The notes beneath the pieces are model-generated. The model worked only from the letters and a program-made list of their open reading frames with translations. It was not told the origin of the DNA and searched no databases. Both the position numbers and the translations under genes were made by a program. Shown here piece by piece: positions 15,993-19,154 of a stretch of 64,000 bases of DNA. The DNA is from Eimeria praecox (lineage: Eukaryota): NCBI GenBank assembly GCA_963920595.1, contig OY986949.1:2604001-2668000 (forward strand), written 5' to 3'. The first letter of the stretch is position 1, and each line of letters opens with the position of its first letter.

Positions 15993-18900
15993 AATGCTAT
16001 ACAAATATTCATATCATCTCAGTAAAACGGACAACACACAACACTCATCACACCATCCTCATGACGTGCCTTTTGTAGACCTTAAGAATGCAATGCAGAT
16101 GATTCGTATCATCTGAATAAATTTATGCTTGCTGGGATACAATCCATTTCCCCAAAGCCGCATATATCCCTCGATTCTCAATGTCTCATTCAAACCATGG
16201 AAATTCAAATATTTAAATCTAGCGACCCCATCTGCACATACATGTCATCATGACGTGCCTTTTGTAGACCTTAAGAATGCTCTATACAAATATTCATATC
16301 ATCTCAGTAAAACGGACAACACACAACACTCATCACACCATCCTCATGACGTGCCTTTTGTAGACCTTAAGAATGCAATGCAGATGATTCGTATCATCTG
16401 AATAAATTTATGCTTGCTGGGATACAATCCATTTCCCCAAAGCCGCATATATCCCTCGATTCTCAATGTCTCATTCAAACCATGGAAATTCAAATATTTA
16501 AATCTAGCGACCCCATCTGCACATACATGTCATCATGACGTGCCTTTTGTAGACCTTAAGAATGCTCTATACAAATATTCATATCATCTCAGTAAAACGG
16601 ACAACACACAACACTCATCACACCATCCTCATGACGTGCCTTTTGTAGACCTTAAGAATGCAATGCAGATGATTCGTATCATCTGAATAAATTTATGCTT
16701 GCTGGGATACAATCCATTTCCCCAAAGCCGCATATATCCCTCGATTCTCAATGTCTCATTCAAACCATGGAAATTCAAATATTTAAATCTAGCGACCCCA
16801 TCTGCACATACATGTCATCATGACGTGCCTTTTGTAGACCTTAAGAATGCTCTATACAAATATTCATATCATCTCAGTAAAACGGACAACACACAACACT
16901 CATCACACCATCCTCATGACGTGCCTTTTGAAGACCTTAAGAATGCAATGCAGATGATTCGTATCATCTGAATAAATTTATGCTTGCTGGGATACAATCC
17001 ATTTCCCCAAAGCCGCATATATCCCTCGATTCTCAATGTCTCATTCAAACCATGGAAATTCGAATATTTAAATCTAAAGACCCCATCTGCACATACATGT
17101 CATCATGACGTGCCTTTTGTAGACCTTAAGAATGCTCTATACAAATATTCATATCATCTCAGTAAAACGGACAACACACAACACTCATCACACCATCCTC
17201 ATGACGTGCCTTTTGTAGACCTTAAGAATGCAATGCAGATGATTCGTATCATCTGAATAAATTTATGCTTGCTGGGATACAATCCATTTCCCCAAAGCCG
17301 CATATATCCCTCGATTCTCAATGTCTCATTCAAACCATGGAAATTCAAATATTTAAATCTAGCGACCCCATCTGCACATACATGTCATCATGACGTGCCT
17401 TTTGTAGACCTTAAGAATGCTCTATACAAATATTCATATCATCTCAGTAAAACGGACAACACACAACACTCATCACACCATCCTCATGACGTGCCTTTTG
17501 TAGACCTTAAGAATGCAATGCAGATGATTCGTATCATCTGAATAAATTTATGCTTGCTGGGATACAATCCATTTCCCCAAAGCCGCATATATCCCTCGAT
17601 TCTCAATGTCTCATTCAAACCATGGAAATTCAAATATTTAAATCTAGCGACCCCATCTGCACATACATGTCATCATGACGTGCCTTTTGTAGACCTTAAG
17701 AATGCTCTATACAAATATTCATATCATCTCAGTAAAACGGACAACACACAACACTCATCACACCATCCTCATGACGTGCCTTTTGAAGACCTTAAGAATG
17801 CAATGCAGATGATTCGTATCATCTGAATAAATTTATGCTTGCTGGGATACAATCCATTTCCCCAAAGCCGCATATATCCCTCGATTCTCAATGTCTCATT
17901 CAAACCATGGAAATTCGAATATTTAAATCTAAAGACCCCATCTGCACATACATGTCATCATGACGTGCCTTTTGTAGACCTTAAGAATGCTCTATACAAA
18001 TATTCATATCATCTCAGTAAAACGGACAACACACAACACTCATCACACCATCCTCATGACGTGCCTTTTGAAGACCTTAAGAATGCAATGCAGATGATTC
18101 GTATCATCTGAATAAATTTACGCTTGCTGGGATACAATCCATTTCCCCAAAGCCGCATATATCCCTCGATTCTCAATGTCTCATTCAAACCATGGAAATT
18201 CAAATATTTAAATCTAGCGACCCCATCTGCACATACATGTCATCATGACGTGCCTTTTGTAGACCTCAAAGAACGACATAACAAGGCCTTAGCAAGGATC
18301 ACAACAGCAATCAAGCGGAGCGCGGTGAATCGGGACAAGACTCTACAAATAGACAGCAGTCCAGCGGATATGGAAACCCTACTGAGGCCAGATATCTTAC
18401 TCAGGGACGACAAGCACAAGCGAATTGTGATAGCCGATGTGGCTATTGCGTTTGAAGACTATCAGAAGAATTCGTTTGGCTCTGCTCGTCTACAAAAAGA
18501 AGAAAAGTATCAAAGCCTCAAGACGTATTATGAAAAACGTGGGTATAAAGTGTCAGTGCAAGCATTAATATATGGGTCCCTTGGGTGCATAGCAAAGGAA
18601 AACAAAAGAGTGCTTACACACGAGTTGGGACTCAATGAACGCACAGCATGGTTTGTACAACGTGAAATTAGCACTGACTGTATTCGTCTAAGCCATCGTA
18701 TTTGGGGTTTTCACATGGCAGATAATGGCACGAGGCGAGCAAGAGGAGGAGGTCGTTCTCGTGCTAACATATCTTAAGTTGCTTGACACACAAATGAGCT
18801 AATAGAACACCAAGCCTAATACGCTCGGTAGCAACACTGAGGGTTTATTCAAACGCGTGAAGACGGTTGGCTCGACATCCGGGCGTGCCGTAGGAGTTGG

Positions 18901-19154
18901 AGCTCCCTCGCATCAACCTTTTCAACCTTTTTTGCTCGAGGCGGCAACGCCCAACTCCAAAACCCAGCTATTAAATTTTAATGCTCTATACAAATATTCA
19001 TATCATCTCAGTAAAACGGACAACACACAACACCCATCACACCATCCTCATGACGTGCCTTTTGTAGACCTTGAGAATGCTCTATACAAATATTCATATC
19101 ATCTCAGTAAAACGGGCAACACACAATGCCCATCACACCATCCTCATGGCGTGC
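15993..19154 (+). repeat. 285-bp rDNA-spacer satellite array 1 (interrupted by a retroelement, ends at an assembly gap)
   Basis: Exact 285-bp periodicity of identical ORFs at 16129, 16414, ... 18124. Confidence 0.95.
18267..18979 (+). mobile_element. 5'-truncated RLE non-LTR retrotransposon (family B) inserted in the 285-bp satellite
   Basis: Encodes RHNKAL...RPDILL...IADVAIAFE...KEEKY (PD-(D/E)xK RLE), stop at 18777, then a ~200-nt 3'UTR homologous to that of the 28S element. Satellite sequence lies on both sides (AGACCT | AATGCTCTATAC). Confidence 0.92.

Follow-up and report, generated by a model that had tools for sequence, protein, structure and literature searches.

R2Bm recognizes its 28S target in two parts, from -34 to -22 and from -6 to +1, at a fixed spacing (PMC10499050), and R2 RNAs can carry upstream 28S sequence of up to 36 nt (PMC3774820). 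Shifts of the insertion site within the rDNA have been described for R8, R9 and a fish R2 lineage (PMC5035012). In Utopia elements, the 3' flank is U2 snRNA from nt 39, an RNase H upstream of the reverse transcriptase (RT) is given as unique to oomycete Utopia, and the host table of this source, in the portion used here, contains no Apicomplexa (PMC4640811). A recent catalogue holds many NeSL/Utopia elements (Fell et al., 2025; PMC13580325). A satellite can also serve as target: In Ciona, YURE elements insert occasionally into the U2-derived satellite U2_sat (Kojima and Jurka, 2015; PMC4640811). For Eimeria, Reid et al. reported mostly degraded chromoviruses only and noted how useful an intact native element would be (PMC4199364). 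LTR elements of the genus are treated there and in PMC11912684, and the portion of PMC12102361 used here holds nothing relevant.

Our literature search, with most of the subscription literature outside its scope, found no publication on the Eimeria site described below, on Utopia in Eimeria (0 hits) or on a target mimic in a spacer. To our knowledge, intact retrotransposons are described as almost absent from Apicomplexa. Here, we present an intact, site-specific element of 1461 amino acids in Eimeria, which is located at a 28S site mirror to that of R2. What is new is an apicomplexan site-specific lineage whose 28S target appears duplicated as a spacer array that is used by a sister family.

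Organization of the rDNA and the spacer motif

The window, by which we mean the whole 64-kb stretch of DNA that was analyzed, starts with unique sequence in which CAG and TAAACCC repeats are frequent and continues with tandem rDNA: 28S pieces at 19463-26463, an 18S gene at 53410-55205, then 5.8S, and a second 28S at 56182-59828. Each 28S is followed by a 285-bp satellite, and array 1 stands before a 200-N gap. The satellite and its 28S counterpart comprise the following features:

15997..18266, plus strand: satellite array 1, made up of 8 units (285 bp each) with 15 intact cores
18980..19154, plus strand: satellite after the family B insertion, restarting at AATGC and stopping at the 200-N scaffold gap (19155-19354)
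26617..27225, plus strand: diverged spacer-start subrepeats with the motif in each, one copy inverted (26834-26861)
27196..44871, plus strand: satellite array 2, 285-bp units followed by 381-bp variants, 123 cores, without insertion
44889..44996, plus strand: distal end of array 2, holding two degenerate copies of the motif that agree with 28S at 21/28 (44889) and 16/28 (44969) positions
58722..58749, minus strand: 28-nt 28S target segment resembling the spacer motif, spanning -27..+1
59966..60246, plus strand: inverted repeat directly after 28S with the motif on both strands, inverted copy at 60201-60228
60563..64000, plus strand: satellite array 3, 24 cores, continuing past the end of the window

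The core ACCTTAAGAA is found 168 times on the plus strand of the window and three times on the minus strand (26834, 60201 and 58722, the last being the 28S site). The plus-strand copies are distributed over 27196-44900 (123), array 1 (15), array 3 (24) and two spacer starts (3 each). A first-pass annotation of this DNA had pointed out that the 28S site and the satellite have this core in common, that each 285-bp unit carries it twice and that array 2 alone holds more than 100 copies. All three statements held, with three cores per unit in the 381-bp variants and with a likeness that is wider than the core.

As both 28S sites in the window are occupied, the empty target was reconstructed from the sequence on either side of the short insertion in 28S copy 2. 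In element orientation it reads GGCT-ACCTTAAGA^ACGTCATAG and equals in length the planarian 28S printed in PMC4640811 S6. Between this target and the spacer motif, 22 of 28 ungapped positions are alike, from -27 to +1 relative to the nick. Besides the core, the agreement includes a hexamer, ATGACG, in register at -27..-22 (58749-58744) and 12 nt ahead of the core, together with 6 of the 12 bases in between. The sequence ATGACGT, which the first-pass annotation had seen flanking both the satellite copies and the 28S site, lies in 28S on the other strand and beyond the nick; the in-register match is this different hexamer.

The motif is the best 28-nt match of the 285-bp unit to an rRNA set of 18S, 5.8S and 28S (both strands; without about 110 nt of 28S and without the insertion). 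A score of 22 anywhere in this set was reached by 4 of 300 shuffled units and exceeded by none of the 300. Given the core, agreement at 12 or more of the 18 upstream bases has a probability of 1.4e-4, and agreement at 22 or more of 28 positions at fixed register, multiplied by 570 positions, one of 9e-7. Allowing at most one mismatch, the shared pattern gave 181 matches in the window and 0 in 100 shuffles. Outside the block, the likeness drops to chance in the 8 subrepeats (6-10/28 upstream, 5-9/28 downstream). In a wider scan, the shared pattern was absent from viral contigs and occurred twice in prokaryote genomes, both times in 28S-like sequence and neither time in a satellite.

Two other readings of the motif were considered. 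Human U2 (PMC4640811 S1) matches 7 nt out of register with the Utopia junction and reaches 8/27 in register; its out-of-register agreement with 28S -20..-9 (10/12) and with the spacer (9/12) was noted by eye and post hoc and is a lead. The satellite as a snoRNA guide or another known RNA was rejected: its 8 Rfam hits all stayed far below the gathering score, with the strong ones reflecting the inverted repeat only, and its 28S match carries central mismatches. Rfam detected no U2 in the window.

Several further observations concern the surroundings of the motif. Read-through RNA of the inverted repeat at 59966-60246, which has a counterpart near 26600-26880, would fold as a hairpin carrying the motif, and one part of the inverted segment equals the modern unit (100% over 57 nt). 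The left border of array 1 with unique sequence (15975-16000) lies in what looks like a damaged motif core at about 15985-15996. The satellite 3' of the B insertion (18980-19154) is composed of array-2-type and array-end variants, and the 7 short blocks 5' of B belong to the array-1 variant; this switch would stem either from a recombination event at B or from an assembly artefact-like join beside the gap. The spacer at 45000-53400 is non-repetitive (about 8.5 kb); tblastn detected no element remnant in it, and all of its ORFs are shorter than 200 aa.

The 28S nick lies in helix 69 (58530-58547 + 58720-58725; upstream half likewise in copy 1), whose stem is GGACG/CGTTC. In the planarian, the stem is GGGAG/CTCTC (PMC4640811), so that two pairs have changed in a compensatory way; on the 3' side, the bases affected are those at +1 and +2 of the nick. 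Rfam and BLAST were also applied to loci from a metagenome scan, which gave 80 distant loci with a best identity of 34%. Nothing was found by Rfam in the first 20 of the 80, and rRNA/satellite BLAST of all 82 loci matched L081 and L082 only. L082, from an unrelated protist (74% 18S identity), has the helix 69 stem GGATG/CATTC, so variation in this helix is not unique; its version reads AAGAATG as the spacer does. L081, a contig of eukaryotic origin that had been placed in a bacterial MAG, carries at 2420-2452 a 33-nt piece of the target 28S segment between collagen-like exon stretches.

Two sister families at the two versions of the target

The insertions in the window and their flanks are:

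18245..18266, plus strand: 5' half of the spacer motif that B interrupts, with a microhomology junction at which 4-5 target bases are missing
18267..18979, plus strand: family B insertion, 5'-truncated, consisting of the end of the endonuclease domain (frame 18268-18777) and the 3' UTR
20577..25362, minus strand: element A in antisense orientation within 28S copy 1, apparently of full length, its 5' junction lacking 2-3 bases of the target
25159-20774, minus strand: ORF of element A, 1461 aa, with RT, CCHC and PD-(D/E)xK endonuclease
25363..25386, minus strand: upstream 28S target flank of element A, -27..-4
58548..58719, minus strand: A-type 3'-end copy of 172 nt at the same site of 28S copy 2, flanked by a 3-bp target duplication and 95.9% identical to A

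Element A was assigned to the Pfam families RVT_1 and zf-RVT and shows a zinc-finger-like motif at its N-terminus (by eye); no Myb domain was hit in Pfam at E up to 0.1. It aligns to R2 protein, and its best solved relatives are R2 proteins. A structure model of the last 908 residues (pLDDT 83) gave R2 as top Foldseek hits, with a TM of 0.70 to R2Tg, and a basic loop could be aligned by eye to the matching loop of the R2 protein. In sequence similarity, A scored 228 bits to R2 versus 566 to Utopia-type proteins, the two values coming from different databases.

The search for relatives of A returned 288 sequences, of which 120 were listed. Six of those listed (P0001-P0006) are 64-98% identical to A; relatives with names come from E. 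necatrix and E. mitis, and the runs carrying the sequences include chicken gut metagenomes, which points to a chicken Eimeria as the likely source of the DNA. In a quick tree of 57 of the 121 sequences, calculated without a named R2 or NeSL reference, A and P0001-P0006 formed a clade (SH-aLRT 100) with P0007/P0008 as sister (97), joined to an oomycete group at 80. The nearest named relatives outside the A clade are oomycete proteins with an RNase H upstream of the RT (4/4 tested), a domain that is absent at this position from A, P0001, P0005 and P0007. As in elements of the restriction-like endonuclease (RLE) type, a single ORF combines RT, CCHC knuckle and PD-(D/E)xK endonuclease, the 3' junction is fixed (A and the 172-nt copy) and 5' truncation is variable (B). 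From its sequence, A is an intact retrotransposon with RT and RLE that comes nearest to Utopia/NeSL-type proteins, its membership in that clade being putative. By its insertion site, A is not an R2.

Both A copies have the 3' junction ..TTTCC|ACGTC, and the target duplication at the 172-nt copy is ACG. Their 5' junctions differ and the 172 nt contain 7 differences, which indicates that the two insertions are independent. A occupies 2/2 28S sites and 0/177 spacer motifs of the window. Under equal affinity, this pattern has a probability of about 1e-4 (calculated by hand), a distribution that refers to the window alone, with 3 insertions and no empty 28S site. The proposal that the satellite acts as a sink diverting insertions from 28S is contradicted for A in the window by these counts.

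The 5' region of A is structured (z -5.95), and no ribozyme family was among its 11 weak Rfam hits. Here, GTCATCTAA (25323-25331) lies 31 nt inside A and is the complement of positions -31..-23 of the 28S flank. When the first 60 nt were shuffled, 3 of 1000 sequences reached a 9-nt complementarity to the flank, and 34 of 1000 did so when the whole 5' region was shuffled; the segment is paired in the centroid fold. It could form an RNA helix with the co-transcribed flank or be a second, inverted binding site.

Family B is 73% identical to A on the amino acid level over 154 aa of the endonuclease region (74% on the nucleotide level) and 77% identical to P0001, which makes it a separate family. 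The 3' UTRs of A and B have a common block (75% over 60 nt). The B junction ..ATTTT|AATGC places the nick at the position of A or 1 nt upstream. Hence, the same 3' junction position, as claimed in the first reading of this DNA, stands within 1 nt, exact identity being one of two possibilities.

To collect further B junctions, contigs of four of the 24 listed runs were aligned to 18190-19070, their depth not being equal to copy number. Runs X1 and X3 are from organism A, and one of X1-X3 may stem from the window's own source. A second 5' truncation, with spacer sequence ..CCTTTTG joined to B position 18854, was present in one contig of X1 and three of X3, representing two studies. An X1 contig runs from 18854 via AATGC into a flank unlike that of the window, and a contig of X3 covers 18933-19009. 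An X1 contig of 724 nt aligns over 334 nt and extends with 390 nt past the window's 5' end of B, showing that longer B copies exist. Altogether, B has at least 3 different 5' extents, and independent B junctions, in the window and in contigs of two studies, fall at the spacer motif. B recurs at the spacer motif. The annotation had named B insertions elsewhere as evidence against its idea; the additional junctions lie at the motif, and among its three options a family B that uses a harmless high-copy target is the best fit. B ends with 28S flanks are possible in organism A, where 24 of 129 loose ends were listed.

In organism B (X4), 7 contigs have B-like 3' ends followed by the flank C-AACGTCAGAG (agreement 0.55). 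This flank is like the 28S site at 9/10 bases and differs afterwards; it may be a mixture or another mimic, and its opening suggests that this lineage keeps the core. Satellite flanks had no cover in X4 at 80% likeness, where contigs show presence and not absence. Run X13 (organism C) contains the same satellite and B pieces and is not counted as a further species. A full-length B protein was searched among 856 candidates; the 3 hits (best 77%) include none, and B may be mobilized by the protein of another family.

Short 3'-end copies occur in both families. A 126-nt copy of the B 3' end (18854-18979) was seen repeatedly, in two studies. Its conserved 3' block is also retained in the 172-nt A copy, and for this block 29 pairs are predicted, 5 of them with double changes (3 sequences only). 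Such copies are possibly SINE-like minimal elements.

A proposed capture of the target and its alternatives

Our preferred explanation, held with moderate confidence, is that a piece of the 28S target was captured into the spacer, was amplified there and is now likely the niche of B, while A still inserts in 28S. It starts from two sister elements with 3' ends at most 1 nt apart on two versions of the motif. Judged by R2 biochemistry, their proteins would read an upstream block at about -27..-22 together with the nick bases, so that the likeness from -27 to +1 would represent the recognition site; from the R2Bm recognition spans, the extent of the block is as expected for the site of an R2-like protein. 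The copying direction would be from 28S to spacer, because the 28S segment is ancient. Since the likeness ends at the nick and starts approximately where R2 RNAs can carry 28S sequence, the first copy was probably made by element activity, either through a carried upstream flank or through repair at the nick. Spacer turnover would then have multiplied it, and the satellite unit holds a homologue of the sequence directly 3' of 28S, which is consistent with amplification from there. The avoidance of the spacer version by A and the presence of B in it, as seen in the window, would extend to the genome. Speculatively, the 6 upstream bases and the bases beyond +1 that differ between the two versions could maintain the split, possibly by way of homology to the 3' flank that each family's RNA carries. 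As the spacer copies are sense to rRNA transcription and the 28S copies antisense, the spacer may also be an expressed, productive home.

As the window holds about 90 motifs for every 28S site, an element without preference would also land mostly in the spacer, and the location of B therefore fits either specialization or mass action without a change in specificity. Furthermore, insertions may be purged faster from the satellite than from 28S, which would hide A in the spacer. We also considered a satellite subunit as an old 5' junction, composed of 28S flank and element 5' end, and rejected it: the likeness of the first 60 nt of A to the post-motif sequence does not go beyond shuffles (for the 10 copies, 28-1000 of 1000 shuffles reached the score, the best two copies having 28 and 48).

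A rather unlikely reading is an arms race within one rDNA unit, in which a copy of the 28S target has become a selected mimic array that traps B or provides safe break sites for the upkeep of the rDNA, and A has evolved to distinguish the two versions. Closely related, and unlikely in our assessment, is a decoy selected by the host, where the array is kept to absorb insertions or protein aimed at 28S, B is trapped and A evolved discrimination. The excess of an in-register mimic is in agreement with a decoy, as are the two 28S sites without B and the strong conservation of the block across the 8 diverged subrepeats (96% versus 60% upstream and 71% and 51% downstream). However, A disrupts both 28S copies of the window, and recent motif variants (6 events at the 22 shared positions, 1 at the 6 unshared) are not depleted at positions shared with 28S. 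Copy 44889 differs from the modern motif at 5/6 unshared and 1/19 shared positions (Fisher p = 6.5e-4), but this is a single copy chosen after inspection, with counts by eye, and the test for repeated hits on few sites gave p = 0.18.

Quite improbable as a full explanation is a site for a host factor: whatever its origin, the motif would be preserved because it works as a polymerase I terminator, as a fork barrier or in transcription-factor binding, and B would use it only for its likeness to the target. A repeated conserved box directly downstream of 28S, a feature of terminators and fork barriers, is present: the first spacer motifs begin about 155 nt past the 28S end, the unit holds the homologue of post-28S sequence mentioned above, and one inverted copy has a fixed place in both spacers. 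Conservation among the subrepeats extends to about +20, taking in non-28S bases and including TGCAATGCA (90 copies on the plus strand), which we take to be close to an ApiAP2-type motif. A host factor would leave unexplained that the best-kept block is 28S-like and ends at the nick, and it would not set the register; as a force conserving the motif, it is compatible with target capture. Finally, spacer nicks that start unequal exchange, expand the satellite and possibly serve rDNA copy-number upkeep are very doubtful: the precedent of R2-made breaks driving rDNA copy-number expansion in Drosophila (PMC11700107), the resemblance of the left border of array 1 to a damaged core and the recurrent core changes at -4..-2 in the window stand against a nick that holds just one of the three indels seen across 162 array blocks, a count that does not establish repair scars there and gives the idea of nicking-driven expansion no positive support, and against 149 of 177 identical motif copies where repair from uncut neighbours should favour resistant variants.

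Relation to described elements

Two target versions, alike at 22/28 positions, and two sister proteins that seem to split them make up a natural experiment that is usually missing. It opens the questions of how RLE elements change their target, whether elements of the Utopia/NeSL branch share the two-part recognition known from R2 and whether target mimics can serve a host in the defence of an essential gene.

With R2, element A has in common the fold and the 28S neighbourhood, and the two-part geometry of the target looks similar. With the R2 nick in 28S at the position which we take to be its site, the site of A is the mirror image: the nicks are symmetric, each 1 nt outside the CTTAAG palindrome. 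Unlike the sense-oriented R2, A uses the opposite strand and orientation, 8 nt apart and on the other side of CTTAAG. It also differs from R2 in lacking a Myb domain by Pfam and in a similarity far lower than that to Utopia-type proteins, and an HDV-like ribozyme was not found among its Rfam hits. The 17 MGEScan non-LTR hits classed as LINE R2 in Eimeria genomes (PMC9141347) may include the A/B family; in the part of that study used here, these calls come without target sites, junctions or a link to rDNA.

The planarian LIN9, LIN24 and LIN26 (R5/LIN lineage) are NeSL-related and located on the reverse strand of 28S like A (PMC4640811 S6). They differ in their 28S sites and poly(T) tails, and no spacer mimic is reported for them in that supplement. 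Utopia resembles A in its single ORF with zinc finger, RT, CCHC and RLE and in the coexistence of several families; its target is U2, whereas the flanks of A and B are 28S and spacer, and A has no RNase H. The closest parallel in targets is YURE in U2_sat, where Utopia relatives likewise insert into a satellite derived from the target gene of their lineage. In U2_sat, a long part of the gene is copied and insertions are only occasional, whereas here just 28 nt up to the nick are common to both versions. Unlike U2_sat, the array described here shares its rDNA unit with the true target, and the two sites seem to be divided between sister families.
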